Assembly (NCBI GenBank): GCA_000091205.1
Contig: AP006498.2
Origin: Cyanidioschyzon merolae
Taxonomy: Eukaryota
Reading direction: 5' to 3' (one strand)
Length of the DNA: 64,000 nucleotides
Shown one piece after another: positions 274 to 63,250 of the stretch; position 1 is the stretch's first letter; each line of letters begins with the position of its first letter. The position numbers were made by a program, and so were the translations under genes. The notes below the pieces were generated by a model. It ran no database searches. It saw only the letters and a program-made list of their open reading frames with translations, and had not been told where the DNA came from.

Positions 274-1024
274 TGCGTTACATGGGTTTGCTCTCACAGC
301 GGTTTACCGAAAGTTCCCCAACAGAGGCGTGCACCATGATTTTTCGCGTGAAATGGTGCTAAGGATCTGATATCTTTCTCAGCGTCCGCAGGTTAGCTAG
401 GGGATGAGCCTGCTAATGATTAACGTGTACCTTTCGCGGTACCAACACAAGCGTTCACCCTTTTCATCGACGCGAACGTGTTCGAAAACGTGGTCGTCGA
501 CAGATGGCGTTCACCCGAGTTGGATGTTCAAACGTCGCAGGCGTCCGTTGGACTGGGAAAATTCGTTCACAGAGACGCTTGCAATTGCGCCCAAGAGTTG
601 TTCGAAGGGGCAGCGAAAGCGTCAGACAGCTTCCTTCCATGGGAGGCTGTTGCTTGGCACGCATGCAGAAGTTGCTCGTTTTCCGTTGGCGCGGTCGACG
701 CTCACCAGAACCTATCGCCGCGGAATTACGAGAAAATAGTCAATCTGGAACATTGTGGGATCGCATAAGTTTCCTGCTGCCTGACGGTTAGAAGAAAACC
801 TTGCACTCTCTACTTCTCACTTCGGCACTACTACGCTTTACTCGATTTTCTCTCTGTCTTCGTCTGAAAAGCCGAGCAGAGCCGGACTCGCTGCTCACTG
901 TAAAGAAGGACCGAGAATGCAATGTTTCTCGGAAACCAGCGGGCAGGCTCCATTCGGAGCTCTATTTCAAGCCACGATGACAAGGAAATGCTCGCGAGTA
1001 TCGGGCATACCGCAAAAGATGCCC

Positions 1025-1681
1025 CTAGTACAACCGATGTGGTTTGCCCATGGAGGTCTTCACGTGAATAGACTTGATGTTCTGCCACTGCTTCTTAAGA
1101 AGAGAGATTAAAAAGTTGATTGCCAGTGTAATGTTGGCGACAAGTTCATCCTCTGTCATTTGGACGTTACCCACAGCCACCGCGAGGCAGAGAACTTTCT
1201 TCAGCTGGAACTTGATCGTGGCTTTCACCTCATTAACCTTCGCCTCTACAGTTTCATTTGAGGCGATGAGAGTCGGAAACTTGCCTGCCTTGTTCAATCC
1301 AGGCCCCAGAACCCTTGGAATCTGACGTATTACAGACTCACTCGCCAGAAAGGCGTCATAGGACTTGGCAAACTTTTTGATCGGTTTCTTCTGTTTGTTG
1401 AACTGCTTGAGCTTCTCGAGGTCGTAAAAGTCTATGCCAAGGGCTGCTGCCTGTGCATTATGCGCAGCATCTCCCAAAACTGCCACTTTCATTTTCGGTC
1501 GGGGAATGTACGGCAGCTTGACGGAGCCAGAGAAACGCTTGTCTTTCTGTGGATCATAGTTTTTCAGACCAACCTGAAGCTCAACCGTTTCGACAAAGTT
1601 TCTCTTGCGCTCCTCCCTTGACTCGCGCAACATTTCCTGCACCGCAGCGCGAGTTACGGACACAGGTAGTTTGCTCGTCAT
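1025..1681 (-). CDS. RPL10A: 60S ribosomal protein L10a (uL1 family), cytosolic
   Basis: Strong full-length match to eukaryotic RPL10A ('[71 protein letters not shown]...'). The ORF-track ORF 1025..1783 has an upstream TTG start. I moved the start to the first ATG (MTSKL), revcomp of 1679..1681, giving about 218 aa. Confidence 0.9.
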
Positions 1682-1970
1682 GGTATACCGTCTAGTTTCT
1701 ATTCCACAGAAACTACAGAAAAGACTAGAGCGTGTCTCGACAGCAATGACGGCGCATCCGCGACGCCGGATACGAATGGACAAGGCTAGCTAAATCTGAT
1801 CAATACGAATAAAAGAGACAGCGATCGCGCCTCTAGCACGCAGGCAGTGACCTACGACCACATACACCACGCGAAACAACAACCTACGAGCTACAATTGC
1901 GCTAAAAGAACAGAAACTATCCAATAACCAGCAACTCTATAACAATTTCGTTTCATCTTCACGGCACGCG

Positions 1971-3310
1971 TTGAAAGGGAAAAGTGTTTCCCTTATTTTA
2001 GAAAGTTTGTCTTCAAGCCGGAAGGTCCCGCGAGACGGACGAGTGTTCCGGGCTTGCACTCCGTGCGCCTCTACAGTGGCGGTCGCAGTGCCGAGACCTG
2101 AACGGCTCATCTGGAATGCGTTTTATTCTGGGAATAAGGGTGGCAAGGGTGTATCCAGGTATCGCCCTGGTGGAAGTGGTCTCCTAGCACAGCTCTTTCG
2201 CGCTGCCGCATGCAGTAGGTCTGTCTGCGCAGATTGCATGCTCCAAAATGATTCTATGATCCGATTCCGTATCGGGTGCACCACGCCTTGGGCCGACGCC
2301 CTCTGTGCCATGACAAAGCCGTTTTGTCTCCGTGCTGTATCCGTACCATCCATGTAGGCGTTATTGTGGGTGCTCACGGCAGGCTCGGCGCGCGGTAGAA
2401 CGCACGTAACGACCAGTACACCCGAGAGGAAATATGGGTGATGAAACTTGAAGGTGGAGCGCAGCATGATGGACGCTTTCCACAATGCCACAACTCATCC
2501 CGCAATTTAGTGACCATGGCCATCTAAAACGATTTCTCAAACAAAAAGGTTCGCATAATGGAGCGATCATTACGTTACACTATGAAAAACACTCGTTCTT
2601 TGGGGTTCAGCTATGGGCATTACGGAGGAATGAAAAGTAGCTCTACCCCCGATAGAATCCGCAAAAGCTCGAACGCAACGGAAATCGTGAAATGCCAGGT
2701 TGTCCAGTAGAAGCACATCAGCAGATGTGAGGGAAAAGTCTCCAATGATTGGATCATGTGGGTGCTATTTCATGAGCCTTCTCTGCGAGAGAATCCGAGG
2801 CCGCCAAATATATCCACTGCAGCTAGAACAGATGATGAAATCTTTCTCTTGGAGTTCGATCTTATATACAACTGGCGCCTTCTATGCGAATACCCATATA
2901 CAATCCGACCGTTTCGTCCGAACGGAGTCTTACCGACTAAGTAAACGGACCGACGTGCCTGTGCTTCCCAGCGATCGAGACGTCCCAGTAACTCTGTCGT
3001 TGCGATATCGGTGGAAGATGGTGGTGCATGAAACTCAACTTTTTTGCGACTGTATCCCTGTGTATTCAGGACCACACGAACAAGCTGCTGAGTACCAGAC
3101 ACGCCCGTGGTCGCTACCATCGTACGGTTTGATTTCTCTAAAGTGATCAACATATCGTTTTCTACCATTGACCGCAAGCACGCTTCGAGAATATCGGTTA
3201 CTGGCTCGGAGCGCATACACGTTTTTCTTTCAGTTTTCCTCAAACATTTGCGCACTGTGGTATGGCTTACTTGAAGGGGCAAGGCAGTCCTCCTTGCACT
3301 CTTCAACAGA
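1971..3310 (-). mobile_element. Tc1/mariner-like transposon relic: degenerate transposase (2700..3306, minus) plus an associated 3' repeat segment (about 1971..2500)
   Basis: The minus-strand ORF 2770..3306 has an HTH-like N-terminus ('ITLEKSNRTMVATTGVSGTQQLVRVVLNTQGYSRKKV') followed by '...SSVLAAVDIFGGLGFS', resembling the Tc1 'GGSVMVWGCFS' region. Homologous fragments occur at 14152..14639, 32514..32699 and 63050..63244. The 1971..2500 segment ('GCTTPWADALCAMTKPFCLRA') recurs at 33432..33767 in the same relative position and orientation. All copies are short and degenerate. Confidence 0.4.
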
Positions 3311-3607
3311 GCATATATCCTATAGGTAATTCGCCTACGATCTAAATGTTACATTCATTAGAGATTTCTGTCTCCTTCTCCACCCCGCAACGATGGTGAA
3401 CCAAAATTGAGTTGAAAGATTACAAGCGACGGCCGTTCCGTGGCCGCAGCTGCTGTGTCCGAATTTACCAAGATCGAGAGCCGTTACGCTTCTGTGCCTG
3501 GCCCTGAGCTCAAACAGCTACGTTTACGTACATACGTTGCAGTGGGTTATGTGAGCACAACTTTAGGCGTCTTACTTTTTCTCACTAGCGCACCAGGATT
3601 TTTCCTA

Positions 3608-8649: not shown

Positions 8650-9164
8650 AAGTTGTAATGTATACGATGATAAATGCTTTGTTCACTGGCGTCTACCAAA
8701 GAGAAGAGGGTTGGTGGAACGTGATGTTGTCCGTGATGAAACAAGTACCGGGAGGAAAATACAACCAGGAGAATAAGTCGACCAATCTGGATTCGTCAAC
8801 GCACTCTTCATGTCCAGCGGTGGCGCAATCTCTACCGAAAATGATCGCCACTATAGCTTAAGTCCGATCCCAAGTCAACTGTCCATGCAAACAGAAGAGA
8901 TGGGAGCCTCCCGGAGTAAATATTTTGAGCGGCATCATCATGCAGAGGAGTGGTGTTGCATCGATGGAAGCGAAGAAGGGATCATTTTTATCAGAGCGAA
9001 ACCCATTATTTGGCGTGACAAGTTCAGTGTGCTTTCGGCATGAGCTTGTGAAGGAGTCTTCAAGCGACGGCGTCGCGTTTTTCTCGTCGCCATTCCAGCG
9101 GCGCGAATCGCTGCGCTCTCGAGTTGCCATCAAAGAAAAAACCAACAGCTTGAAGAACGCTTGA
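8650..9164 (-). repeat. Dispersed repeat X, inferred to be the N-terminal part of the family-2 TnpB-like element (sense strand is minus here)
   Basis: Minus-strand 'LEDSFTSSCRKHTELVTPNNGF...LFCLHGQLTWDRT' is homologous to 35052..35324 (+) 'LEDWFASSYRKFTELGTSSNGF' and to 43150..43707 (+) 'VFCFHGKASWTRT'. It always lies immediately 5' of, and co-oriented with, a family-2 RuvC-like fragment. Confidence 0.4.
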
Positions 9165-11626: not shown

Positions 11627-11790
11627 GTTTCGCAATCATTGGATAAATGAATAGCCACCTAAAGACTCATCCCAGTCTTTCTCGACCGGCCACCCACAAC
11701 TGGATTCAACTTCTTTCCGAGCAATTCCGCCTTGAGAGGTTGCCCCGTAAAGTTGGCTCTCGTCAACTCTGAGGATCTCGTCTCGAGCAC
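11627..11790 (-). ncRNA. Candidate omega-RNA-like conserved 3' non-coding segment of Fanzor copy A
   Basis: On the minus strand: 'ggggcaacctctcaaggcggaa...ggccggtcgagaaagactgggatgagtctttaggtggctattcatttatcc aatgattgcgaaac'. The blocks 'ggggcaacctc', 'ccggtc.a..aag.ctggga.g.gtc' and 'gattgcgaaac' are conserved with 47974..48197, 56040..56150, 63870..63985, 33961..34065 and, more loosely, 44255..44310. Confidence 0.35.
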
Positions 11791-13889
11791 AGCACATCTT
11801 CTGATATTAATAGCAGCGTAAATGTCATGGTTCATGAACTTTATTCCATTCTTTCAGTTCGTTGTACTCACCAGTGCGAGCAGTCTTCGAAAATGTGCCC
11901 CTCTTTCCGTTTGCTGTTCTGTCAGCGCTCCGTACTTTTCTACATCCTCAGGGCTTCGCTGGCACTTTTCCATCTCGACCCTCTGAAGCGTGCACCCCAG
12001 CTCATAGTGCATACAGGACGTTTGGAAATCATCTACCAGTATTGTGACAAAACGGTGTGTACATTTCTTGTACGCTCTCGTCGATGGAGCAGGTGTGCCT
12101 TTTTTGGACGCCCATCGCGCCGCTCCGTGTGCTACTACGAGAATTTTTCTCGTGTCCGCCTTGAGGGCGCTCAGCTGATTGATGAAGTTGGCGAATGCAC
12201 GCTGTTTCCCATAGTACAGGCTCATACGCGTACGAGCGCACCAGAGCCCTGTGTACTCTTTTCACAGCTCCTCGTTATGAGCAGCGCCAACTTTCATGAA
12301 TTCCTGAAAAGCTTCAAAGTTCTCTACGCGGCTCGGCAGCTGGCTGATCGCTTCCAGATGCTCCTTCACTCCTGCGTTCCATGTCTCAGTTTTCTTCCTC
12401 TCATTCATTATTCCCGATTCTCGGCAATATATCGCTCTCGAGAACTTTAAAAGACGCATGTCTTTTTGACGTAAGTTTGAGTCAGTGCCATCTTCCGCAC
12501 ACTTGGGTGCTGTGATGGCCATGATATTCGTCTTCCCAGTGTCAAGGCCAACGACAAAGTCGTTATCCTGCACTTTCTGTGTCGCAGGATCCGCCTCCTT
12601 CTCATCTTCCTGCTTCGTCACGGGCGATCTCGCAGATGGGCCACGATGATCTGCCTTCAACCTTCGACAGTGTACACATAGGGCTACTCCATCGGTCTCG
12701 ATGATGCCTGCGAGTGCCTTCTGCCTACTCGTTTTGAGACATTTAAAATCGAAGATATTCTTCCAGTACGTCTCCCGGTTTTCGCCGGTGAACTCTGTCA
12801 CCCTTACATCGAACTCCGGACAGATCTCCTTCGTGATGCCGAAAAGGGATGTGGAGTCGATTGTCACAAAACGCCACTTGATCTTACGGAACAGAACGAC
12901 GTTGAAGCGCGTCCCCATTACGACAGCCCTCCGTCGCTCCTGCTCTTCGCTTCCGCCCTCACTCAGCTTCATCTCCACCTTGCGTTCGAGTTCACGGTCC
13001 AAAAATACAAAATAGCGCAGGATGAGGGGATAACACTTTTTCTTATCTTTTTTCGTAGCTGATACCTTTTCTGCTGCATTCGCTAGCCGCAAGACTGCAC
13101 GGTGCTCTTGAACAGCCGCAGAGATCACAGAAGCTCCATTCTTTCTCCTGCGTGATGTCTTCTTGTGGACGAAATCTATCTCCTGTTAATATTGGATATC
13201 GTCCGTGATGCTTTCGACAATGATCCATCTCTCTTTCCGAGAGAGGCCCGGGTACAGTGCAAGCGTGGCGCGTATCATGAAGATTTTGAGTTTCATGGTC
13301 AGATTGTTCTTCAGCTTCGTGAGATACTTCGTCGCCCGTAGGTGCAAATATCCCCGTCACCCCCGTATCGAGTACCGTTGAAAAGGCACTCGGGGTGATT
13401 TTCTTGTAGGACGTGTACTCAATCAATTCTGCTCGACGCTTCCCGTGTGCCAAGCATCAGGCGGAGAATGAAGGTCATGTTGAAAAATTCTTCCGGTACC
13501 TCTACTGTTTTGATGTCCGCCACGTCGTGATGCATCTCCCTCACCATATGCCTCAGTTCTAAAGAAGTGTTTCGGACACTGCTGGAGTACGAGGCGACTC
13601 GGTTTCTGATTGCCTCTTGGACTTTTTGCTCGTACGAACTCTTGATGTGTCCGAGAAGAGACGCTTTCCCTACCATCTCGTCATACTGTCGTCTTCCGTG
13701 CAGCTTTTGATGTCTGACCTCCCTTTTCTGCTCCTTCATCTTCCCCTATTCCTCCGGGCTTGGCACTGTTTTTCGTTTTTTCCGGCAGCCGGCGACACCG
13801 TCCCTCCAGGATCCTCAGCCTCCGCGTCCATAACTTGTTCTTGCGTTTTTTTTATTTTTGACAATTAACGCGCTTGTTTATGCCGTTAG
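11627..13889 (-). mobile_element. Fanzor/TnpB-like element, family 1, copy A. Full length (about 2.26 kb) but pseudogenised by several frameshifts
   Basis: The protein is spread over minus-strand ORFs 13419..13739, 13043..13453, 12262..13128 and 11854..12225. RuvC-I-like motif 'DFVVGLDTGKTNIMAITA' at about 12540..12575. RuvC-II-like 'FVTILVDDFQTS' at about 12020..12054. The RuvC-III region is homologous to the 'EFVNRDFNAAINI' motif seen intact in copies at 46.6, 47.9 and 55.9 kb, but is frameshifted here (11790..11830). The left end 'ggtcctcacctaa...ttgtcaaaaataaaaa' at 13845..13889 is conserved with the copies at 32984 and 55568. The conserved 3' tail ends in 'gattgcgaaac' at about 11627. 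Confidence 0.65.
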
Positions 13890-14149
13890 GTGAGGACCTG
13901 TACGGCGGGGGAAATATTAGCGGGAGAACGACGACATGCGCCCCTATGTCAACGTGTTCTGAACGTTTCGGCGATCCTTCCACTGGATCGATCGTTACTT
14001 TTCCGGATAGAAGAAACTCCATCGATGGGGTTCAAACACGGACACTTCGAAGGAATAAAAAAGCAACGTTAGCCCGATAGAATTGGCAAAAGCTCGAACA
14101 CAAATGGAATGGTATTTACCATTTCGTCCAAGGGAAGGAGGTCACCACA

Positions 14150-14700
14150 CGTCAGGAAAAAAGTTTCAATGATTCGAAAAAGTGGGCGCTGTTGTTTGAG
14201 CCTTCACTATGAGCGATACTGAGACCGCCAAACGAGTCCATCGCAGCTAGAACAGATGATGTCGGAGTTCTCTTTGAGTTCGACCCTGCATACAACAGGC
14301 TCCCTCTCCGCGAATACCCATGTACGCTCCGACGGTTCTGCCCGAGGGGAGTCTCATCGACTAAAAAATAAATCGACACACCTGTGCTTCTTACCTATCG
14401 CACGGTTTCAGGAAAGCTGTAGTCGCGATTCCTGTGGAAGATGGCGATGCCTGAAGCTGAACTTTTTTGCGACTGTATCTTAGTGTTTCCAAGACAATAT
14501 CAACAAGCTGCTGATAAACAGAGACGCCCGTGGCGACTAGTGTCGTCGCGTTTTGCTTTCCTTGAGGCGAGCAACGGGTCATTTTTATACGACTGACCGC
14601 AAACACGCTTTGACAATTCCAGGCTTTGGTGCGGAGCACACATACTTGTTTCTTTTAGTGTTCTTGAACGATCAGAGTATTGTGGTATGACTGACCCGAA
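14150..14700 (-). mobile_element. Tc1/mariner-like transposase relic (fragmentary)
   Basis: ORFs 14391..14639 and 14152..14379 (minus) read '...VLETLRYSRKKVQLQASPSSTGIATTAFLK' and '...VHGYSRRGSLLYAGSNSKRTPTSSVLAAMDSFGGLS'. These are homologous to the 2770..3306 relic. Confidence 0.4.
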
Positions 14701-17069
14701 AGAGGAATGCCGTCCTCGTTGCACTCTTCAGTAAAGAATGCATCCTACATTCAATTCGTCTACTATCTGTACGGCACATTTCGTAATGATTTTGATCTCC
14801 TGCTCTGCGCTCGAAAAAGCATTCGATTGCACTTAGCGACATGGGAGCGAAACTGAATTGGAAGAATTTAAGTTTTTGACCACATCGTCTGAATCCAAAC
14901 CCATCGGGTTGAAAACGGTAAGAAAAAGCATTTGTCTGTGGTGTGGGAAATGAGCAGCGGGCGCATCCGCAGCAGTGATGTACCTCGTTCAGGAAAGGTT
15001 TTCCGGCATTCTCTCCTGCACTGCGGGCTCCAGCTTCCAACTCAAAGGGGCAAATTTCGGCGTTTTTTCCCACGTTGTGTTCATTTCTAGACCAGACACT
15101 GAACAACTGAGATAAGGCAAATTTTCTAAATGGTACGTTTGGATTTGTGACAACCAAGATGTACCAGGCTTTTGGCGGCCTGGTTGCCAAACGCTGCTTT
15201 CCACTGCGAATCAATGGTAATTTTCTCGGCAGTATCACCTAAAGCAAAGATCATCTTCGTTCGCCAATTGCTCAGAAAAATCTCTCTCGGTGCGTTCATC
15301 CGGCGCTCAAGACTCGCTGGACAGCTGAACATTACATTACCGGTGCCTTGCTAGGGTCGACAAGAAAATACCCTCTGTTCTGGCTGCTTACGTTCTCATC
15401 GGAAGTCTCCGTGGTTCGGTACATTGCCCACGTTGAGTACTAATTGATGCTCTGAGAAGTTCGCTCGACACTCCGGAAGCACGAGATATTCCAGGATGCT
15501 TATCAAAGGGCGTTGAAGGCTCAGTGCAGAACTTGCTCCCGCACATGCACACTGGTGAAATCACACTGTAACAAGCCGCTCACCTCCGATTGCATCCCCA
15601 TTTGAAGTTCGATCATCTTACCGCACACAATCCCTTGCATCCGGGTCAGTTTCACGCTGGAATTCTCTAACGGGTTTGGCGAGAACCCGTGCTCGAGATG
15701 CACGGATGTTTTCCCAAACCTTCCATTCATATCGCGCATAATCGTTACTACACTAAATGTACGCCCTTGTGGATGGAGCAGAGGTGCAGCACATGCGTGC
15801 TATATTACGTCCAGCGCCATTGGCTATCATAGAAAGACGTGACTTATCGGTCATTTCCGTTCCCAACTCATTGAACAAGTTCGTTATTGCATGCCTCTTG
15901 CCTTTATAAATCAGAAACCGTTGACAACCCGAGCGTGTCTCGTGTGCTTCTACCAAAGGTCGTCTGCATGAGTCATTGGGATGCTGGTGCACTCTCTGAC
16001 TGAGGCGAACAACGCATCGCACTTTGCTCGATTCAGTGCTCAGAGTCTAGGGATCGGTCCTTGTGTTGTCATAACGCTTCTTGACCTGCATCCTGGCATC
16101 CATTGTGCCGGACTTACCATGAGATCGAGCCATGGAAAAGCTGTGAAGCTCCATCCGGTTTCCGGTCAAATATTCGTCACTACCGCCTTGTTCTAGTGGT
16201 ATAGCGGCGGGCATCATATCCTTGGAGCCAGGATCCACGCCCCTCACGAAATCTTTCTTTCTTCATGGAACTTGAAGGAGTGAAAATGAGAGCCGTTGCA
16301 TCACTCAGGCCTAGTTATCAAGAAGTGTATGCAGATGAATATTCTGTTGGTCTCCGTGGTCCTCGAAAAACTCTTTCCACTTTGTTCCTATATAAAGCAG
16401 GGTCCTTGAACGAGCTTTACCTATTCTTATTGCTAGGTTGTTCGAGTGCTTTGAAGTTTTATGCTTAGGCGAACCATGGCATATAGAGAACCGCCCATAG
16501 TACACTGTGCTAATTCCTACAAAGATATGATTGGGCTGTCAAGCGACGTATGAGACCATGTCGAATAGACGCGTGAGGATTCGAGGGTGGATTCTGCTTT
16601 GTTGTCCTTGGTTTCCTGGAGGAAAACGTGGGAACGAAAGATGCACGCAAGGCAGGTGTTATGTTTGATGAATTCTTAAGACAAGCCCTCTGTGGGTATG
16701 AGGGCTGAAATAACAGCATGAGCTTGCTCGATCCGAAGTGATACGCGCCCCCGCTGAGGTATACCTTCCGGTACTACTAGCTCGTGATTGTCCTCTAACG
16801 ACTTCCCTGTATCCCATCCATTCGTGCCCTCCTTTCTGGGCCGGTACTCTGAGGCTACAACGCCGAGAGGTACGCCTTACGAAGCGCTCGAGATTAACCC
16901 GCAAATAGCTTTTGAGGTTTATTGATACTTTTTGGCAACTACGCCGTAGATATTCCAAAACCCGACTGAGCATTGCTGGGCGTCAAGGTGTTCTGGAGAC
17001 CCTGTTTGCAAATCCCTTATGCTACGTTCCAACCGTCTTGCATCGTCTGTCCCGAGCATCAGTTCATTT

Positions 17070-17395
17070 CTATTGGGAGTTTTGATCAAAAAAATAGGTA
17101 GCCATGTGGACAGCCTGCAGACTTGTTTGCGGAACTCGGATGTTCAGCTGCGTGATGGAGTGCGTCAAGACGAAACACGCTAACCGAGCATTGCTCGAGT
17201 AAGTAGCTACACGCTCACGGATAGCTTGCTGCACCTTACCTTTTGGAAGATTGCCTCCGCGCATGTGTTTAGGTATCTAGCCTTGACAAGGCGTTCAGAC
17301 AGACAAATCCCCCGCTGATTGATCTCTTTCCTGCCCTTCCTCGTCCCCTTTTCGGGAGGACACCTCTCTTCATTGTCCATGGTTTTTTCCTCCTT
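17070..17395 (-). mobile_element. Solo 5' fragment of Fanzor family 1
   Basis: 'KEEKTMDNEER...' and 'KVQQAIRERVATYSSNARL' match the N-terminal region of copy A ('MKEQKREVRHQK...KVQEAIRNRVASYSSSVRN', 13419..13739). No downstream RuvC region is present. Confidence 0.3.
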
Positions 17396-31448: not shown

Positions 31449-32399
31449 ATGCACAGTGCGTTTAGCGACACGTTCGGCGATGCGGTAATCAGTACGTATT
31501 TTGGTGCTGCTGCGACAAGTACTCAAGCAGGACTCTCTTACCTACAGCAGGGCAGGTGCAAAACTGGATATTCATTTCGCAGCGTGTGATCTGTCTAAAG
31601 AAGATTGCAAAGTCTGTATGCAGTGAACAAGTACTTGCACAGAGGGCTGGAAACTAGCGAACTCAAAAAGCGTACTGTATTGGGTACAGAGCCGAGACGC
31701 GCGCTGACAACAAAAACAGCACGAGGCGCCTATTTTGCACGATCCGCGCTACGTACCTCTCCAGCGTAGCTGTGTTCGGTCTGGATTGAATCCTGGGCTT
31801 TCACGAACAGGTGTTTGCTGAGTGTCAGCAAAACAGGTGTCCCGGCAACGGCTGTATGGAGAGGTGTTTCCAGGGGGAGCTGCCCTCTCTGGGTCGAGAC
31901 GGATAGCAGACTGCACTGGCAGCAGACGATTCAAGGAAACCGCTGATAACCTGTGGAGCGCGGTTGTGGTCAAAAGGCGATGGGATTTTTAGGACAAGCA
32001 GTGCAAAATGCATCGGATGAATCCTATTCTAGTCTTTCAACGGAGTTTTGTTTGACCACCGCTGCGGTGTTGAGCTGGAGATCGAAATCACTATCCAATG
32101 TACTGTATGGATCGTTGATGAATTTCATGTAGGATATATGCTTTACTCAAGAGTACGGGGAGGATTGCATTTCAGTCTGGGTTCAGTTATAAAATAGTAC
32201 GCAGACTGTTGAGGAACACTGAAGGAAACAAGTATACGTGCTCCGCGCCAAAAACACGTTATCCTTAAACACGGATTGTGGTCAATGGTAGAGAACCGGT
32301 CCGTTGAACGCCCTAAGCAAAGCGTTTCCGACGATGGTAGTCGCCATGGACGTCTCTATTTCTCAACGGCACGTTCGTGTGATCGGAAAAAAACTGTGA

Positions 32400-32900
32400 T
32401 ACAGTCGTAAAAAAGTCCTAGTGCATGAACTAATATCTTGCACCGAAATCGCAGCGACAGAATTCCTCGCATCTTGCGATAGCTAAGAAGCACAGGGACG
32501 TCGATTTGTTTCTTCATTCGATGAGACTTGCTTCGGATGAAACCGTTGGAGCGTATATGGGTATTCGCGGAGCAGGGCGTCCGTTGTATGCACGGTCGAA
32601 CTCGAAGAGAACGATGGTATCATAACCTGTTCTAACTTTGATGGATACATTTGGCGGCCTCAATTTCGCTTGTAATGAAGGTTCGTATAACAGCAACAAC
32701 CACTTTTCCGAATCATAGAAGACATTTCCCTGTCGTCGGACGACGTCATTCTACTGGACGAAATAGTAATTCCCTACTCCATTTGCGTTCGAGCTTTTAC
32801 CGATTCTATTGGGCTAGAGGTGCTTTTCATTGCGCCGTACTCTCCGTGGGTCATCCCCATCGATCGATTGTTTGATATCGTGAGAAGTTATGATAGCTCC
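32400..32900 (+). mobile_element. Tc1/mariner-like relic fragment (transposase sense on +)
   Basis: The antisense ORF 32514..32699 reads 'LLYEPSLQAKLRPPNVSIKVRTGYDTIVLFEFDRAYN', homologous to 2756..2944 'LFHEPSLRENPRPPNISTAARTDDEIFLLEFDLIYN'. The 3' repeat segment follows at 33432..33767. Confidence 0.3.
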
Positions 32901-32983
32901 GCTGGGCGACTTGATGAATCATCAGCTCGCCTGATACGGGGGCACATGTCATCTTCTTCTGCAAGTCCTTCGGCTTCAGGGAA

Positions 32984-34065
32984 GGTCCTCACCTAAAGTC
33001 ATAAAAAATTGCGTTCATTGTCAAAAATAAAAATCCAAGGAATGCGATGGGGAGTGCACTTTAGAAGGTCGAGATAGAGAGCAGGCGGCGGAGCGCTTCG
33101 GCGATAGAAAAGCACAGAGAGCTGATTAAGCAGCAAATGGACAGAGGGCACGAGTTCGAGGACACCTTGCACTGGTAAGTTCCACCAGAGGCAATAAAAG
33201 CATGGAGTTCGTGAACGGAGAATTTAACGCCGCCATTAATGGCAGATGTGCGATGCTGGTGAAGAGACCCGAGGTGATTTTTTTCATATGACAAAACGTT
33301 TAGATTGATCATGGATCCCAGAATTCGGAAGAGATAATGGCTTTCAGGGAAGCGTCCATCATGAAGGACCCACCTTCAAGTTCCATCACTCATACGTCCT
33401 CTCGGATATACAGGTCGTTTCGTATGTTCTATCATGCGCCGAGTGCCTGGCGTGAACGCTCACCGTAGCGCCTATATACCGCTGAAGTAGATGCTGCACG
33501 GAGACAGAACGGGTTTGCCGTACCACTGAGGGCGTCGGCTCGAGGCGTGCTATATCCGACACGGAGCCGGACTACAAAATCATTCTGGGAGCCTGCAAAC
33601 TGTGCTGACAGACCTACTGCCTGCGGCAGCGCGATGCAATATACTAGGAGTCCACTGCGACCAGGGCGACGCCCAGATGCAGCTTTGCTGCGTCTACTCC
33701 CAGAATGAATTGCGTTCCAGACGAGCAGCTCAGGTTTCTTTAAAGAACCCACCACTGGAGGCAGCATGAAGCGCTAGCTAGCCCCGCAGACTCGTCCGGC
33801 TCGCGGGACCTTCCGCCTAGAGGGTAAATTTTCGAAGATACGGAAACTTTTCGCCATTTCAACGCTAACTATCAAGGTCGATAGAAACTGTTATCGATTT
33901 GCTAGTTAGCGGTTAGTTTCTGTTCTGTCACCCGAGGTGATGACGCAATACAGCTTTGTGAGACAGCCTCTCAGGCTCGAAGTATATTGGGATAAACTGA
34001 AACCGATAGCAGGCGACCGGTCAAAAAACCTGGGAGGGCCTGTGAGGGGGTATATATATGCACTC
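32984..34065 (+). mobile_element. Internally deleted Fanzor family-1 derivative (5' end joined to 3' end), split by an insertion of about 660 bp (33300..33960) that contains the Tc1-associated repeat
   Basis: Left end 'ggtcctcacctaaagtcataaaaaattgcgttcattgtcaaaaataaaaatcc' at 32984..33040, as in copy A. 33181..33290 encodes 'MEFVNGEFNAAINGRCAMLVKRPEV', a degenerate RuvC-III box. 33961..34065 is the conserved 3' tail 'agacagcctctcaggctcg...ccggtcaaaaaacctgggagggc'. Confidence 0.45.
33432..33767 (-). repeat. 3' repeat segment of the Tc1-like family, inserted within the Fanzor derivative
   Basis: 'GYSTPRADALSGTANPFCLRAAS' is homologous to 1971..2357 'GCTTPWADALCAMTKPFCLRA'. Confidence 0.35.
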
Positions 34066-34189: not shown

Positions 34190-34500
34190 TGGGAGCTCGA
34201 AAGCACGTGATCGCTCCTGATTGGAAAGCATCTCATATATGCAGGGTACCAGTACGACCGGAAGTTTTCTTGTGCGTTCATAGCACTTCCAATTGGGAAG
34301 CATCTCATATATGCACGGTACCAGCAAGACAGGAAGTTTTCTTGTGCGTTCATAGCACTTCTGATTGCGAAGCATCTCATGTTTGCAGTGTACCAGTAAG
34401 ACAGGAAGTTTTCTTATGCTTCCATAGCACTCCTCATTGGGACGCATCTCACGTATGCACATGGTGCTCGAGCTGGCGGTTCCGAGCGATGCACCTCTTC
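34190..34500. repeat. Tandem repeat, 72-bp unit x about 4.3
   Basis: Unit starts at 34225, 34297, 34369 and 34441 ('gaagcatctcatatatgcacggtaccag.aagacaggaagttttcttgtgcgttcatagcacttc..attg.'). Seen in the ORF track as the reiterated peptide 'EASHICTVPARQEVFLCVHSTSDC'. Confidence 0.8.
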
Positions 34501-35038: not shown

Positions 35039-35930
35039 TCAAGGCAAAATCTTGACGTCTTCGCTTGAGGACTGGTTCGCGAGCTCATACCGAAAGTTCA
35101 CTGAACTTGGTACGTCAAGTAACGGATTTTGCTGGAAATGCAAATCCTCCTTTCTTGAAGGCAATCGGCGGAACGGGACGCAACAGCAGTTAGGTGTCGC
35201 CCTCGGGATATGCTCGCTGAACGCTCCCCTTCCTCTTTTGTTCGTGTGGCAAAGGGTTATGTGCTCGGATATGAGCCCTGACAAAGAACGCTTTCAGTGG
35301 AGCGCGCGTCACAGCTTTACATGAACGAGGCGTAGACGGATCGAAGCTTCTCGAATTGTCCTCCGACTTTGGGTTTTGTATTCAATACTTGTTTCATCAT
35401 GAGCAACGTCGCGTTCCACAGATCCTTTTTCGGATAGAACGGCGTACCGAGGAGTGTGCAGTGGACAACCTACTCACCGAGGGACTTACCCTGAAGAGGC
35501 TCGTAATCGTCCTGTACGGTATTGGGCACGGAAACGAAGGAAGGCATCAAAGGGCGCGCATTGAACCCGTCAAGGGTATATAACGGGCAATGAAGAGAGC
35601 GCTCTCGCGCTCAAGGGCAGCGCCCGAAGGACGAGTAGGATTAGCAAGAGGTGTACTGGTCCCATTGGAACACCTAACAGCAGTCAACTGCCACCGCTAC
35701 GAAGCCGGCTTTCAGGCTTTATGCACAGATGATGAAAATGGCAAGTCAAGCGTAGCTCGCAATTTCCACCTGCACATGAAATGCATAGACAAGTTCCCGA
35801 AGCGGTAAAACCGGGACATGCACACTGCCATCAGCATCCTTCGACTGATAATAACAGAGCTGGGAGACAAGAGAGATCGGTGTATTTAGGGCCGGAGACA
35901 CAATAGAGGTCCAGGGAGCACTCATGGATG
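35039..35930 (+). pseudogene. Degenerate family-2 TnpB/Fanzor-like element: repeat X (35039..35324) plus a RuvC-like C-terminal fragment (35356..35808) and a 3' tail
   Basis: 'LVIVLYGIGHGNEG'. 'GVLVPLEHLTAVNCHRYEAGF' resembles a RuvC-II 'EYRTSKVC'-like box. 'RNFHLHMKCIDKFPKR' is homologous to 43902..44246 'RSLNLFVKCANKYRKRVHWDVKSAINILRQ'. The tail 35810..35930 resembles 44190..44310. Confidence 0.35.
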
Positions 35931-42107: not shown

Positions 42108-43149
42108 CAGCGAGTCAACAAGGGAGTTCAAGGCACCGTGCAGCAGCAAGTCAACCGTTTCAAGCGACGCGATGCGACTCGTGGTATCGATGATTCCTTC
42201 ATCGACGTCGTCGAGCGCTGGCGCTATATTCGTGGTGGCGGCGGCAGTGGCGGCGGCGGCTATTCGTCAACTGCCGTACGGCGTTACCGCCTCACAGGCG
42301 TGCCTCTCGAAGCTTGGACACAGAGGTAGCGGTGGTGTAGCGTGTGCGTCCGGGGAAACGGAAACGCTGACGCTTTGTGAACGCTGCTGCGGGATCGCAG
42401 TGACTGGGAGGGAGCACACGCCTCCGAGTCAGAGCACGTGCACGGGGTTGGCTAGCATAGTGCTGTGGAAGGCTGCTCGAGGCTGACAGCAGTCACCTGG
42501 GTACGAGCTCGCTGAAGAGAGTCTGAGGCAAGGCGCTTGCGGGAGTGGTGCGCTCTTGGCACAGCGATTTCACAACTGGGAAGCGAGTGCGGTAACGTCG
42601 GTGCGCGTGTTGCTAGGGCGGGGTGATGGCTGATGAGGAGGTACGTGGACCTGCGTGCCTGTGCTCCTGCTGTTTGGCATTGTGAGTGGGCGTGAACGTC
42701 GTATTTCGAGTTGACGGCACCCGGAGGTTCGCTGGATCGAGTCAGTATTCGTTAGCGAAGCAGTGCTGCGGGGTGTTGGCGTGCGATCGTGTGCGTTGTA
42801 GCAATAGCGCCGTTGTGCTAGTGACTTGCCGCGTGCATGAACCAAGCGTCCCTTCCTTGGCGGAGTACTCGCATGGTGGCCTTGGAGCTCGGAAGCGTCC
42901 CCAGAAGCAATGAAGTCCATGCTCTAAAGACTGGCAGTGTGCGCGTCTCTGGTGGCTTTTGGACAGAAGCACCGAACCTGGTCTACGCGCGAGAGAAATT
43001 AGAATGGAATACTGAACTGCATGCTCGATTCCTGCCTTGCGGATTCATTCCCGAACTTTTGTCATGTATACAGCTTCGATATCTGTAGTCCATGAAAGAG
43101 CTCTTTCGGATGCGAATGCGTCTTCGGACTCGCAATCGTCCATTTCGGA

Positions 43150-44310
43150 GTGACTCCATCGGCGCTGTGCTGCTCGAACTCAAAAAGTCACCGAAATCAA
43201 GACGATTCTCGACGCAGCAGAACGACGGTTCGTAAAATAACTGGTATCGTTATCCGACGCGCACGAACAAGCCTCCACTCTTGTCTGTTCCCTAGGTGTA
43301 GCATGCTCAGATCACGCAAGCTCCTAGTTTGCCGATCTTTCTGTTTTCAGGCAAATCGTAGAGACGGCAGTTGGCGCCGCAGGGATGGCGATCAGGAAAC
43401 TCAACGTTGTCACTTGACGGCTTGTTCACAAGATGGTGCCGAAAGCTCACTACACTTTTCATGTCTAATAATTGATTCCGTTCGAGCGACACATCCCGCT
43501 CTCTTCATGCCTATCGACGAGACTGAACTCGACAGCAGCCGCAGCAGCCGCAGCATGCTTCTGACGAGGTATGATCCCAGAGGCGTTCGTGTCTTCTGCT
43601 TCCATGGAAAAGCTTCTTGGACTCGGACGTCGATCATCGCAGCGACCGCTTCCATTTGCGAGCGGATCACCGGTTTGCACGAAGGGAGCGTAGACGGATC
43701 GAAATAGCTCGACTTGTCCCCGAGCCCGTATTTTCCTTCCGGTACTTGTTTCACCTTGGACAACACCGCGTTCCCCAAATCGTCTAAAGAATGGAGCAGC
43801 ATGCGCTTGTGCGTGCAAGGGACGGAGCACTCGCCGGCGTATTGTCCAGAACGGGCCCGTGATCGTTGGGTACGGCACCGGGTACGGAAACGGAGTAGCG
43901 CATGCTGGGCGATGCTTCTCCACTCGGAAAGGGCTTGTGCCAAGCGAGGCATTGTTCATTTATGCGCCAGGGGGCAGCGATCAGAGGAGGCATTGCGGGC
44001 GTATTGGAACACCTGGCCACAGCCAAGCGTCACCGCTGCGAATGGCGCACCCATTCTGTCTACGAAGACGGTGGAACTGGCAAGCGAAGCGCAGGTCGCA
44101 GCTTGAACCTGTTCGTCAAGTGCGCCAACAAGTACCGGAAGCGGGTGCATTGGGACGTCAAATCTGCCATCAACATCCTTCGGCAGCTGATAACGGAGCT
44201 GGAGCGACACGAGAGACCGGCATATTTCAAGCCGGATGCGCCATAGAGGAACAAAGAGCAGTCGTAGATACCGCGGGCAAAGGCTGGTGTCGTAGGTGAG
44301 AACTGGATGA
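43150..44310 (+). pseudogene. Degenerate family-2 TnpB/Fanzor-like element inside the left palindrome arm (mirrored copy at about 50241..51407, minus)
   Basis: Repeat X 43150..43707, then 'IVGYGTGYGNGV' (43859..), 'GVLEHLATAKRHRCEW' and 'VHWDVKSAINILRQ' (about 44163..44195, a degenerate NAAxNI RuvC-III box) across shifted frames. The tail 44255..44310 'gcagtcgtagataccgcgggcaaaggctggtgtcgtaggt' resembles the family-1 3' tail 'gcagtagtaggtgcccggtccatgaagactgggaggcgtccgtacgt'. Confidence 0.4.
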
Positions 44311-44637
44311 GACCCAGTATAATGATTACATATGCCCGAGTTTGTTAAGTGGAACGTTTCAATTTATTCTGAAATGGACGTAGGGCATCGATGTCCTTCA
44401 TCAAGCACCTTGTGCAGCACAGAAAATGAACCAGAATTGTTCGCTTGTGTGTCGAGGCGGCAAACTCCTCCGCACAATATCCCCGGCCGAAATGCTCTCA
44501 CACGGGCTCAGAGACATCTCTCTGGCATTGACATCCGATGCTCCAGGCTAGCTCGTACTAGGTGGCGCACTCTTCTAATACGAGACAGCAGACATGCACG
44601 TGTGTTGCACCGAGCGACAACGCGCCGGCGACGTCCT

Positions 44638-46014
44638 TCAGTAGCCCAGGTACCTCACTGGGGGTTTCTTCTTCCGACGTGTGCCGTCTGCGAAGCCGTC
44701 CCGACGATCATCGGTTTCATCGCTATCACCGCGTAGGTCGTGCACAAACCCCCGGAGGCTGGCCATCACTTTGTGGGCTTGGCGTCGCAGTTCAGCAGCG
44801 CGAAGCTGCTCGAATGCATCGTAGGTTCGCGAGCCGCTCGTTCCGACATCCCGCGGTCTACGCCGCAAGTGCTGAAACTTTTGCCATCCAGGAACCGCCT
44901 CATACCGGTGATCGCGCATAATTGGAAAGCAGTTGAAACCCTCCTCGCCGGGAAGTGGCTCCTCCGCAATAGACTCAATGGTGGGCAGTTTGATGCAGTG
45001 GTCATCCACCATCGTGGCAAAATCTACGCGTTGACTCGACAAATAATCGTCAAAGTCCAGGCTGTCAGGCGCAATGCGAAATACATTGGCAAGCTCGTCT
45101 GCGACATGCAGCCAGCCAATGTAGATGAGAAAAACAGAAAGCACGTAAATAATGTCCAGCCAGCGATAGTTTCCAATATCGATGCTGCTGGACGTTGCGC
45201 TCAATAAATTCAGATTTCCCGCGAGCAGTATGACACAAATCACGTAGATGCGCACTGTTGCGTTCACGAGCTGGCGGTACATCAGCGGAACTGGAACCCA
45301 CATGGGCACATATAAATAACCGAAATATCCGCGCACGAGCGCAAGCTGCTGCACAAGCTGAAGATGAACGAATTCCGTGATGCCGTAGCGGTGGTTCTGA
45401 TCACGCAGGCGAGAAAGCAAGTGCCCAGCCCACATGACTGGCATCGTCCACTGGGCTCTGTCTACATCATTCTCCAGCCGGTATCGCTCCTCAGGTGTGA
45501 TCAAGCCAATACGTTCCATGGCCTCAGTGGTGCGGTACGCATGATCACCGCCAAGAAAAACATCGCGAAGCACCATAGCGAACGGAATGCAGATCCACCG
45601 GACAATGAGTTGCTTCAACCGTGCAGCGCCGATAGGGTCGTTATCATCATACACGAAGGACGTCATCTCGAGAGCAATATTGTAGGCAGCGATTTGGCCA
45701 GTGCCACACATGACAACACGAACACTCCACCAACGGGAATAGATTGTGCTAGTATAAAACCCCAGCATAAAGGTAAGAATTGGCGAAAGGACACTGACAA
45801 GTGCTGCGAGAGTATTCAGGAAGGGTATCGGCCATTCTGCAACGTAGAGCTTGAGCGCTATCACGAGCACTGCGGCACCGATCCAGGAAAGAAGTTCAAA
45901 GAGCAACCGCTGGACCAATGAGCCGTACCAATGAAAGAAGACTCTAGTCCATGAAAGGGGAAATACATAGTCTTTCCCGAACGTGGCTATGGGATCCTTG
46001 TAGTAGATTGTCAT
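44638..46014 (-). CDS. Bestrophin-like (Bestrophin/RFP-TM/UPF0187 family) putative anion channel, 458 aa. Copy 1 of an identical pair
   Basis: 'LTFMLGFYTSTIYSRWWSVRV' matches the bestrophin 'F.LGFYV...RWW' motif. 'WLHVADELANVFRIAPDSLDFDDY' resembles the bestrophin 'NPFGEDDDDFE' box. Multiple TM helices. Genuine ATG (mirror of 48537). Confidence 0.7.
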   Translation of the reverse strand: MTIYYKDPIATFGKDYVFPLSWTRVFFHWYGSLVQRLLFELLSWIGAAVLVIALKLYVAEWPIPFLNTLAALVSVLSPILTFMLGFYTSTIYSRWWSVRVVMCGTGQIAAYNIALEMTSFVYDDNDPIGAARLKQLIVRWICIPFAMVLRDVFLGGDHAYRTTEAMERIGLITPEERYRLENDVDRAQWTMPVMWAGHLLSRLRDQNHRYGITEFVHLQLVQQLALVRGYFGYLYVPMWVPVPLMYRQLVNATVRIYVICVILLAGNLNLLSATSSSIDIGNYRWLDIIYVLSVFLIYIGWLHVADELANVFRIAPDSLDFDDYLSSQRVDFATMVDDHCIKLPTIESIAEEPLPGEEGFNCFPIMRDHRYEAVPGWQKFQHLRRRPRDVGTSGSRTYDAFEQLRAAELRRQAHKVMASLRGFVHDLRGDSDETDDRRDGFADGTRRKKKPPVRYLGY

Positions 46015-46353
46015 CTCTGGGAAACAAACGTGCCGCGTACCAGGTAAAGGCGTCGCTGGCCTGTGGAAACCTCTTCGGGCTCTTCAAATACGCACAAACA
46101 CCGCTTGGGTGCTTGCGCAACTCTGATTTGTGCTTTGGTCGTCGAACGGGGACTCGCTCGCTCTTGAACAGCAGCCGCACTCGAGCCGTGTGCACGTTTC
46201 CAACCTACGAAAACGCGAACTCCCGCTTCCAGCAGGTATCCTGATCTTGTTGCCTCTACGGTCAGGACGCGCAGTAAGCCTGGTTCACGTACGTACCGAC
46301 TATTTACCGGTGATAGTCGTCCGATCGCAGTGAGACCTACGGCGTCCCGTGTG

Positions 46354-47030
46354 TTTCGCAATCTGTCTGCAATAGCCGTTAGACAACCTGTTTATGGTTG
46401 CTTTGTGGCTCTGTGGCAAACACACACGCCGACACCGAACACTTTCCAAAAGTCGAACGACGCCAGCGCTGTACAGTACTGGCGAGAAGCCCGCCCTAGA
46501 CAAGAAGTCTCCAGCTGACGTACGGACGCCTCCCAGTCTTCATGGACCGGGCACCTACTACTGCTTCCAATTGTTTCTCATATAGTTCCACTTTGGGAGG
46601 TTGCCCCCACAAAATTCTCTCTTGTCAGCGCTGGAGGTCTGCTTTCCAGCACCGCACATCTCCTGATATTGATGGCGGCATTAAAGTCTCGGTTCACAAA
46701 CTCCATACGTTTCTTGCCATCACTGGTTGTACTCACTAGTGCGAGTAGCCCTCGAACTTTCGCCCTTGTTTCCATTTGCTCCTCCGTCAGCGGTCCGTAC
46801 TTTTCTATGTCTTCAGGGCTCCGCTGGCACTTTTCCATCCCGACCCTCTTAAGTACGCACCCCAGTTCATGGTGTGTATAGGACGTTCGGAACCCATCTA
46901 TCGGTATCGTAACAAAACGCTGTGCGCACTCCCTGTATGTTCTTGTCGACGGAGCTGGTACACATTCTTTTTGGGTCTTCCATCGCCCTGCTCCGTATGC
47001 CACTACGAGCCTCTGACGCTCGTCCTCCTT
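46354..47030 (-). mobile_element. Fanzor family-1 copy B: 3' half only (C-terminal about 150 aa plus conserved 3' tail), in the left palindrome arm
   Basis: ORF 46578..47123(-): '...KEDERQRLVVAYGAGRWKTQ...RFVTIPIDGFRTSYTHHELGC...SDGKKRMEFVNRDFNAAINIRRCAVLESRPPALTRENFVGATSQSGTI'. RuvC-III is intact (about 46651..46691). The RuvC-II position carries G ('IDGFRTS'). The tail 46354..46577 mirrors 47974..48197. Confidence 0.6.
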
Positions 47031-47039
47031 CATAATCCA

Positions 47040-48197: not shown

Positions 48198-48536
48198 CAC
48201 ACGGGACGCCGTAGGTCTCACTGCGATCGGACGACTATCACCGGTAAATAGTCGGTACGTACGTGAACCAGGCTTACTGCGCGTCCTGACCGTAGAGGCA
48301 ACAAGATCAGGATACCTGCTGGAAGCGGGAGTTCGCGTTTTCGTAGGTTGGAAACGTGCACACGGCTCGAGTGCGGCTGCTGTTCAAGAGCGAGCGAGTC
48401 CCCGTTCGACGACCAAAGCACAAATCAGAGTTGCGCAAGCACCCAAGCGGTGTTTGTGCGTATTTGAAGAGCCCGAAGAGGTTTCCACAGGCCAGCGACG
48501 CCTTTACCTGGTACGCGGCACGTTTGTTTCCCAGAG

Positions 48537-55139: not shown

Positions 55140-55567
55140 CAAAACAGGTATCACTGCAACCGTCTAGCGAATCGTCTCCGAGAAACCAGAAATTAACAGT
55201 GATTTAAGAATCGGAGATGCAACGAAGAAAAGTTACGCAACAATATTCACTGTACACAGTTGTCCAGGATCGTCTACAGTGCATGTGCATGCACGCGGTT
55301 CCGAGATGACGCCTCGGCACGCAGCAATGCATGGCGTTTCGGGTTGCCTGAGTGGCGGCGCAATCAGCATCGCGGCAAGCGCCCGCGATAGGCGCAGTAT
55401 GCCGAGAACTCTTTGCCCGCAGACAAACAACTAATCTCTATGTCGAACGGAGGGACTGTTCTTGAGCTAGTGGAACGTTGAAGCGTCTGAAGTAATACGC
55501 AACTATGATGGAATTGAGCAGCATTGTGAAGTGCATTGGAGGTGTTCGTTCAAGTTTTCTTGTCATA

Positions 55568-63049: not shown

Positions 63050-63250
63050 TTGCGATCTGTGGTAGAAAACGACACGTTGATCACTTTACAGAAAGCAAAA
63101 GCGATGATAATAGGCGTCACAGGCATCTCTGTTTCGCAACAGCATGTTCGTTTGGTCTTGAAAACAGTCGGATACTGTCGCAATAAAGTCCTAGTTCACA
63201 CACGGTATCCTGCACCGAAATCCCAGCTACTACAGCGTCCCTAGAACGTC
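63050..63250 (+). mobile_element. Tc1/mariner-like HTH fragment
   Basis: 'VENDTLITLQKAKAMIIGVTGISVSQQHVRLVLKTVGYCRNKV' is homologous to 2770..3306 'VENDMLITLEKSNRTMVATTGVSGTQQLVRVVLNTQGYSRKKV'. Confidence 0.3.

Follow-up and report, generated by a model that had tools for sequence, protein, structure and literature searches.

Decayed copies of a repeat matching the Fanzor1 element CMe-1A on Cyanidioschyzon merolae chromosome 16

What kind of element left the repeats that are scattered over a 64,000-nucleotide stretch of nuclear chromosome 16 in Cyanidioschyzon merolae 10D (a red alga), and could any of its copies there still make a nuclease? The most complete copy, copy A, lies at 11.6-13.9 kb of this stretch (hereafter the window) and carries motifs like those of the RuvC nuclease domain of prokaryotic TnpB and of the eukaryotic Fanzor proteins. 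Fanzors were demonstrated to be RNA-guided nucleases in 2023. A reading of the DNA letters alone (the original prediction) had proposed a multi-copy TnpB-like Fanzor family with no intact copy in the window, and both parts are borne out: the family by its match to the published element CMe-1A and its protein CMe-1, by profile matches to solved Fanzor1 proteins, by the predicted fold and by conserved Asp, Glu and Asp residues, and the decay by the finding that each window copy has been broken by truncation, frameshift or stop. The loci are best read as decayed copies and fragments of the known CMe-1A repeat, whose sole gene product is the Fanzor1 protein CMe-1, and a probability of about 93% is assigned to that reading.

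The published repeat and its most complete copy in the window

Bao & Jurka (2013, Mobile DNA 4:12, PMC3627910) described CMe-1A as a repeat of ~150 copies, each ~80% identical to a 3169-bp consensus, that carries a single 734-aa Fanzor1 open reading frame (ORF), CMe-1. The element has no terminal inverted repeats (TIRs), its target-site duplications (TSDs) could not be determined and no associated transposase is given for it in the published table; a separate repeat, TE-N2_CMe, with ~70 copies, is 95% identical to the 5' 635 bp of CMe-1A (PMC3627910). The same list of Fanzors includes one from white spot syndrome virus (PMC3627910), and rhodophytes are among the Fanzor hosts listed by Jiang et al. 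2023. Earlier, Nozaki et al. (2007, PMC1955436) had reported a transcribed 3.2-kb interspersed repeat with 253 copies, making up ~5% of the C. merolae genome, with an ORF that bears a weak similarity to white spot syndrome virus WSV486. CMe-1A is very probably this same repeat, since size, abundance and viral relative agree. The two papers disagree on intact copies: the ORF is truncated in all 253 copies according to Nozaki et al. (PMC1955436), whereas some CMe-1A copies still code for an intact Fanzor1 according to Bao & Jurka (PMC3627910). The novelty implied by the original prediction is therefore lost, the family having been described in 2007 (PMC1955436) and classed as Fanzor1 in 2013 (PMC3627910).

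Both the DNA consensus of CMe-1A and the protein CMe-1 were taken from the supplements of the 2013 paper and aligned to the window by blastn or pairwise alignment and by tblastn. The Fanzor ORF occupies positions 906-3110 of the 3169-bp consensus, leaving little space for a second gene. Copy A, at 11663-13875 (-), is 81.6% identical to the consensus over 2206 bp, and the other loci are 72-88% identical. Judged by these alignments, the window repeat is the Fanzor1 element CMe-1A of C. merolae and its encoded protein is CMe-1.

Copy A is a near-full-length CMe-1 Fanzor1 pseudogene that corresponds to consensus positions 869-3082, so that positions 1-868 and 3083-3169 (the last ~87 bases) are missing. 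Its match to the CMe-1 protein is unambiguous (tblastn E=0, 66-71% amino-acid identity), and its reading frame is single from 13335 to 11653 but interrupted by in-frame stops at 12262-12264 and 11854-11856. Upstream of this main frame there are two frameshifts, near 13775 and 13335; against the consensus, copy A shows two 1-bp deletions, at positions 956 and 1401. The RuvC-I motif, DFVVGLDTGKTNIMAITA at 12508-12561 (-), aligns with the family column D484 of GxDPG and keeps the catalytic Asp (GLDTG). The motif ILVDDFQTS at 12016-12042 (-) corresponds to the family consensus IPVDEFRTS, with Asp replacing a Glu (E656) that is invariant across 73 sequences, and the RuvC-III motif, KFMNHDIYAAINI at 11803-11841 (-), aligns with NRDxNAAxNI and keeps its Asp (D725).

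Assignment to Fanzor1 and the catalytic site

Within the TnpB/Cas12 superfamily, sequence and predicted fold both place the repeat family in the Fanzor1 branch. Searches with single or closely related sequences weigh against this assignment: Pfam scans of the single ORF pieces and of the rejoined 488-aa copy A protein gave chance-level matches only, phmmer found no match to the rejoined protein among PDB sequences, and a profile of 35 close homologues (70-84% mutual identity) had no match in the PDB either. AlphaFold run on the alignment of those 35 homologues produced an unusable model, with a predicted local distance difference test score (pLDDT) of 33. The PDB profile search and AlphaFold succeeded only after relatives at 28-39% identity had been added. 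A family-profile search of representative sequences returned 1475 clusters at E<=1e-3, and a deep profile was built from P0005, a near-complete 752-aa metagenome homologue, and 72 relatives of 28-39% identity. Against the PDB this profile matched PpFz1 (9cf0, E 3.8e-21), SpuFz1 (8gkh, 4.1e-12) and GtFz1 (9cer, 4.9e-8), with no other PDB sequence, and no TnpB chain, at E<=10.

The predicted structure points the same way, its overall WED/REC/RuvC architecture resembling that of the solved Fanzor1s. An AlphaFold2 model was obtained for P0005, a metagenome homologue and not a window copy, with pLDDT 83 and a predicted template modelling (pTM) score of 0.81. In a Foldseek search of the PDB, ranks 1-7 were all Fanzor1 (E 3e-17 to 4e-14, template modelling (TM) score 0.72 normalised to SpuFz), and Cas12 proteins such as Cas12i and Cas12f appeared at E>6e-3, so that Cas12 and TnpB-like chains stood at least ~11 orders of magnitude behind. 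The original prediction had looked to profile and fold searches for confirmation; the fold search gave it, and the profile search gave it with distant relatives included, whereas a single sequence found nothing in Pfam or the PDB. Among six published Fanzor sequences, the profile of close family members matched VCa-2 of Volvox best (E 2e-14), followed by VCa-1 (3e-3; Z=1e6). PF07282 (Cas12f1-like TNB) was matched by 15 of the 73 relatives, with a best E of 2e-8, and not by P0005 itself. Many homologues (P0001, P0003 and P0005 among them) bear the precomputed Pfam label PF26935.1, which a Pfam-A scan of the same proteins does not report.

Alternatively, the repeats might be TnpB genes of prokaryotic type, from IS200/IS605 or IS607 elements, that arrived by recent horizontal transfer or as contamination. 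The RDxNAAxNI box is common to bacterial TnpB and Cas12f-type proteins do occur in the fold search, albeit far below Fanzor1. However, the repeats sit in a contiguous nuclear chromosome and are flanked on either side by host genes, Fanzor1 proteins give the closest matches in both sequence and fold, no TnpB chain came within E<=10 in the profile search, the protein is ~734 aa long with a long N-terminal extension, no TnpA-like ORF is listed in the published consensus, and the copies are old (dS, the synonymous divergence, is ~0.47) and number in the hundreds. A prokaryotic origin of this kind is effectively refuted and retains a vanishingly small probability.

Within the Fanzor1 family, the catalytic residues are strongly conserved: D484 (GxDPG) and E656 (VDEFRT) are invariant in 73/73 sequences, and D725 (NRDxNAAxNI) is present in 71/73. 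The canonical RuvC-II position is occupied by Gly or Ala, in VVAYG(A/S)A, and E656 lies ~35 residues further on. A rearranged site of this type, in which the canonical RuvC-II Glu is lost and an alternative Glu is found downstream, is characteristic of Fanzors (PMC10530073), and the VDEFRTS-type motif that had been taken for RuvC-II is in fact this relocated Glu rather than the canonical position. The alignment shows that the family keeps an Asp-Glu-Asp RuvC triad with a relocated Glu of the Fanzor type. The window copies have not kept it, since the relocated residue is Asp in copy A and Gly in a pair of copies near 47 kb. The RuvC-III Asp is present in copy A, in the 47-kb pair and in a piece at 55.9 kb, and is degenerate at 63.7 kb. 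The claim that each member carries three RuvC motifs stands for copy A alone; in the 47-kb copy they are mutated (GAGPG, IDGF), and the pieces at 33, 55.9 and 63.7 kb retain only the RuvC-III end. Every motif quoted in the original prediction, namely DFVVGLDTGKTNIMAITA, ILVDDFQTS, IPIDGFRTS and EFVNRDFNAAINI, is present verbatim and on the implied strand.

Constraint on the protein is also visible across metagenomes, where one scan of contigs yielded 443 confirmed relatives, of which 80 loci were studied. Most metagenome copies contain stops or frameshifts; in the 897-nt RuvC half, only 6 of the 69 distinct copies are free of such defects, and a near-full ORF is found in only about one locus type (L003/L004). 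Over those 897 nt, the median pairwise ratio of nonsynonymous to synonymous divergence (dN/dS) among the 69 copies is 0.27, at a median dS of 0.47, and the ratio is 0.21 against the consensus. A dN/dS of 0.27 across copies implies that the copy-generating lineages have been under protein-level constraint, as Bao & Jurka argued qualitatively (PMC3627910). Just before RuvC-I (consensus 2117-2196) there is an in-frame tandem repeat of 75-78 bp, with 1-6 units per copy (L003-L082), whose unit encodes ~25 aa (...ATQKVQDNDLVVDAxKHEEKKEA...) and which is low-confidence or disordered in the P0005 model (residues 388-469). In two of the metagenome loci, an 801-aa ORF (L036:4143-6548, L037:5240-7645) begins in the C-terminal part of CMe-1 (MERMSKVRGLLALVS...) and continues into the flank; it is possibly a chimeric ORF or a chance read-through.

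Relics across the window

In total, at least six CMe-1-derived loci lie in the 64 kb, together with two TE-N2 modules. With the CMe-1 protein as query, tblastn found matches at 47.0-48.1 kb (1e-151), 46.5-47.0 kb (5e-84) and 55.9 kb (1e-19), and weaker ones at 63.7 kb (2e-14), 15.7-16.3 kb (3.5e-13) and 33.1 kb (4e-10). The rejoined copy A protein (488 aa) gave pieces at 15.7-16.3, 17.1-17.2, 33.1-33.3, 46.6-47.0, 47.0-48.0, 55.9-56.1 and 63.7-64.0 kb. All copies in the window are dead: each has lost part of its length or carries frameshifts or stops, and none of those that still have the region of the relocated Glu retains that residue.

Two of the copies lie near 47 kb. A 5'-truncated CMe-1A copy at 47036-48107 (+) corresponds to consensus 2093-3165 at 85.6% identity; it has two frameshifts, its RuvC-I is GAGPG (Asp to Gly) and the relocated Glu has become Gly (IDGF), while RuvC-III is intact. 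Beside it at 46444-47030 (-), in the left arm of the palindrome described next, a CMe-1A copy is represented by its 3' 590 bp (consensus 2577-3165, 87.4% identity), again with IDGF and an intact RuvC-III motif. The motif IPIDGFRTS is found at 46881-46907 (-) and 47644-47670 (+), and EFVNRDFNAAINI, the RuvC-III motif, at 46665-46703 (-) and 47848-47886 (+).

These two copies coincide with an 8.5-kb near-perfect palindrome. Its inverted arms, 42998-47032 and 47519-51559, are ~4 kb each and 99.85% identical, their innermost 132 nt are 100% complementary, and each arm contains one bestrophin gene. The 486-nt spacer, 47033-47518, equals consensus 2093-2576 of the longer copy (the first 483 bp of 47036-48107), and as the spacer lies in a CMe-1A copy, the inner breakpoint falls inside the Fanzor element. 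The palindrome looks like a recent fold-back duplication that began at a break within the element. Because the 46.4-48.2 kb copies are partly the two arms of one palindrome, they are not independent insertions.

Shorter and older pieces make up the remainder. A CMe-1A fragment at 33042-33269 (+) (consensus 2737-2971, 79% identity) has a degenerate RuvC-III (NAAING) and is followed directly downstream by a TE-N2_CMe-like module at 33288-33926 (+) (consensus 3-634, 82-84% identity); a solo 5' 635-bp module, equivalent to TE-N2_CMe, was found by blastn at 1905-2539 (-) (consensus 4-636, 77-79% identity). TE-N2 modules and CMe-1A copies are often arranged head-to-tail, both in metagenome loci (L042:2512-2568, L052:3642-3698, L058:5342-5400), with a spacer of ~56-58 bp, and in the window (33269-33288), with a spacer of 19 bp, and the arrangement suggests tandem or site-directed insertion. 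At 34214-34460, directly downstream of the 33-34 kb repeat cluster, a short stretch is tandemly duplicated (period ~72 bp, 83-87% identity).

Two internally deleted derivatives are paralogous, with 69% identity to each other. At 55565-56126 (+), segments 55565-55751 and 55880-56126 represent consensus ~787-967 joined to ~2833-3082 (73-74% identity), and this derivative keeps RIEFVNRDFNAAINI as well as the RuvC-III motif EFVNRDFNAAINI at 55948-55986 (+). In the second derivative, at 63606-63979 (+), segment 63719-63970 represents consensus 2833-3088 (72% identity) and RuvC-III is degenerate (NRALNSAIN). Next to the first, at 56181-56633 (+), is a diverged Fanzor-like remnant with a RuvC-I-like GVGVDPG (tblastn E 1e-4, 29% identity).

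The most diverged material lies at 15735-16586 (-), where a Fanzor1-like remnant covers the RuvC-I to RuvC-II region at ~29-30% aa identity (CMe-1 residues 425-597, E 3.5e-13; P0146 residues 303-586, tblastn E 7e-24). It was considered as a member of a second, better-matching family, and this was rejected: the best of 73 diverse relatives still reached only 29% identity. As no relative among the 73 exceeds that value, the remnant appears simply to be old. The member placed by the original prediction at 17.1-17.4 kb and credited with RuvC motifs is a weak N-terminal remnant at 16872-17243 (-) (residues 68-188, tblastn E 3.2e-4, 31% identity) with no RuvC motif.

Could copy A, or another copy, nevertheless be a domesticated host gene? 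Purifying selection acts family-wide, the elements are reported to be transcribed (PMC1955436), and metagenome contigs L001 and L002 both retain the copy A insertion, at 99% identity. However, copy A is disrupted by two frameshifts as well as two in-frame stops and shows the Glu to Asp change, the product of L001/L002 (P0002) ends like the 288-aa ORF of copy A (...AAHNEEL), consistent with the same stop, and the remaining window copies are all fragments. Domestication is thus very improbable, and copy A is better regarded as one more decayed CMe-1A insertion.

As for the host, two long window ORFs match C. merolae 10D proteins exactly, CMP188C (XP_005537853) and myo-inositol-1-phosphate synthase (BAM81819), so that the plastid-bearing eukaryote of the original prediction is this red alga. 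Genes around the repeats encode a glyoxalase, a DHQ synthase, an E2 enzyme, a malate/lactate dehydrogenase, SelR and four bestrophin-family (PF01062) paralogues, the latter within 18 kb at 44638-46014 (-), 48537-49913 (+), 52133-53815 (+) and 60893-62302 (-). Two of the four bestrophin paralogues belong to the palindrome arms and the other two are ~64% identical in DNA. A further dispersed repeat of 66-75% identity occurs at 8705-8812, 35286-35929, 43644-44269 and 50282-50907, and blastn found no relation between it and CMe-1A.

Element ends, spread and known relatives

The original prediction also spoke of conserved, defined ends, which the window does not offer: copy A is short at both ends, and among the window copies the 3' terminus is present in the 46.4/48.1-kb pair alone. 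The metagenome copies are more informative. Both the 3' untranslated region and a hairpin-forming terminal sequence show conservation in ~45 copies. This hairpin comes in two types, CGTTCGA-CTT-TCGAACG and CGTTTTTC-TTTT-GAAAGGCG, which seem to differ in pairing register. Beyond the published 3' terminus, GAAAGGCG, ~40 copies share ~8-10 nt of semi-conserved sequence (TTTGKTG...) before unrelated flanks begin (for example L041:4293-4544 and window 46432-46683). On the 5' side, (A)TTTTTTC stands directly before the published terminus in most of 16 independent copies (window 33286, L041:1215 and L052:3697 among them), with unrelated sequence further upstream; it may represent a target-adjacent motif (TAM), a target site or target preference, or else the element's real terminus. 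Inspection by eye of full-length metagenome copies revealed no convincing TSDs.

Copy A differs at its 5' side, where it is joined at consensus 869 to repeat X, a ~1-kb sequence at 13849-14837 (-). Repeat X was treated as noncoding, a coding role having been rejected since its six frames are equally conserved and none is favoured. Further copies, of ~70% identity, lie at 2559-3425, 32027-33033 and 62814-63555 and at L056:2926-3916, and every one adjoins a piece of CMe-1A or TE-N2 on that piece's 5' side, with the relative orientation unchanged throughout. The junction of repeat X with consensus 869 recurs identically in L056, an unrelated metagenome copy. An unpublished CMe-1 subfamily probably has repeat X as its alternative 5' region. 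The variant that joins this 5' region with a different C-terminal tail, ...RLRVGIH, comprises copy A, some of the metagenome copies and the pieces at 55.9 and 63.7 kb.

By analogy with characterised Fanzor1s (PMC10530073) and their solved ribonucleoprotein (RNP) structures, the product of an intact copy would be a nuclear Fanzor1 protein loaded with a guide RNA (omega/fRNA) that is transcribed from the element's own 3' end. The guide-RNA region would comprise the last part of the ORF and a ~60-70-nt tail ending in the hairpin-forming sequence, the guide itself would be the flank adjoining the element, and the complex would be expected to cut matching DNA beside a short TAM, which would favour the element's retention or spread. 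In the window this mechanism cannot operate and all copies are relics, because each is shortened, frameshifted or interrupted by stops and none that still has the relevant region keeps the relocated Glu.

To the null searches above, several further points that weigh against the proposed nuclease have to be added. The canonical CxxC...CxxC zinc ribbon, common in the superfamily between RuvC-II and RuvC-III but not known to be obligatory, was not found in CMe-1 or in most of its clade, and only scattered Cys and His columns are conserved in that region of the family alignment. The RNAalifold consensus of the last 250 nt contains only 4 pairs, a two-hairpin model has no more covariation than its shuffles do (76.8% of its cells pair, and 76.6% in the shuffles), and per-sequence folding z-scores at the 3' end, from -3.3 to +1.05, are mostly non-significant. 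A conserved RNA structure at the 3' end was considered and is not claimed, given the 4 pairs, the covariation result and the two pairing registers, and an Rfam scan of the whole window gave no match. Finally, the Chlamydomonas Fanzor1 CrFNuc-1 formed an RNP and showed no in vitro cleavage (PMC10530073).

These same observations, namely the missing zinc-ribbon ligands, the lack of a significant covariation or folding signal and the inactivity of CrFNuc-1, fit a protein that is derived from Fanzor1 but is no longer an RNA-guided nuclease and serves instead in RNA or DNA binding, in regulation or as an aid to transposition. The 3' hairpin would then be a DNA signal for transposition, comparable to IS200/IS605 or Helitron ends, and not part of a guide RNA; the absence of TIRs and TSDs (PMC3627910) and the common 5' truncation of copies, which are sometimes head-to-tail with TE-N2, can be read likewise. 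Such a loss of function is unlikely, however, as the triad is invariant or nearly so in 73 relatives at 28-39% identity and dN/dS is 0.27, as expected for maintained catalysis, and all three solved homologues are RNA-guided nucleases. A family of Fanzor1 nucleases, with its window copies decayed, is accordingly preferred.

How such an element multiplied is a separate matter. Apart from the ~5% contributed by CMe-1, the C. merolae genome is almost free of transposons. An element that encodes Fanzor1 alone has reached 150-250 copies under purifying selection, for which reason transposase-free spread was considered: the Fanzor1 protein and a 3'-end RNA might suffice, through RNA-guided homing or copy-in. 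The 3' hairpin, the T-rich motif flanking the 5' end, the frequent 5' truncation and the head-to-tail arrangements suggested an undescribed single-strand or rolling-circle route instead. Taken together, these proposals are speculative and rated as improbable.

As a discovery the locus carries little weight, the repeat having been known since 2007, its Fanzor1 class since 2013 and the nuclease activity of Fanzors since 2023. What is added here is the confirmation by profile and fold against solved Fanzor1s, the dN/dS of ~0.27, the loss of zinc-ribbon ligands in the clade, a variant with other 5' and 3' regions, and a 3' terminus slightly beyond the published one. As a genetically tractable thermoacidophile whose dominant repeat is the CMe-1 family, C. 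merolae offers a clean system in which to study the spread of a transposase-less Fanzor element and to ask about nuclease activity at 42-45 degrees C. On the speculative readings of transposase-free spread, the near-intact hot-spring metagenome copy L004 would encode a nuclease that is RNA-guided, active and adapted to heat and acid.

Among known systems, the prokaryotic TnpB proteins of Thermoplasma volcanium (TvTnpB) and ISDra2 share with the CMe-1 family the RuvC fold and the RDxNAAxNI box, and their guide RNA is encoded at the element 3' end (PMC10530073). Unlike CMe-1, they are ~400 aa long, associated with TnpA and bounded by defined left and right ends (LE/RE). The best fold matches are the solved Fanzor1s of Spizellomyces punctatus (SpuFz1, 8GKH), Parasitella parasitica (PpFz1, 9CF0) and Guillardia theta (GtFz1, 9CER), which, like the CMe-1 family, have the relocated Glu in (V/L)DE(F/Y)xTS and a RuvC-III of NRD type, although identity is only 12-15% in structural alignments. 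CMe-1 differs from them in having no CxxC...C zinc-ribbon ligands, in the variable 25-aa tandem repeat before RuvC-I and in a carrier element that, as published, is without TIRs, TSDs or transposase. The green-algal Fanzor1s VCa-2 (partial) and VCa-1 of Volvox carteri (Bao & Jurka 2013) share with the CMe-1 family the block LYGxKxxxFAxFF...VVAYxxxKF...PT...KEC...FVTxPVDEFR. Published CMe-1A itself lacks the repeat X 5' region and the ...RLRVGIH tail of the copy A variant, and metagenome copies differ from it in the 3' end, conserved for those ~8-10 nt more, and in the T-rich motif before position 1. With the window copies it nonetheless shares the genome, the ORF, the motifs and the 5' 635-bp TE-N2-like module, and the 81.6% identity of copy A fits the published value of ~80%.

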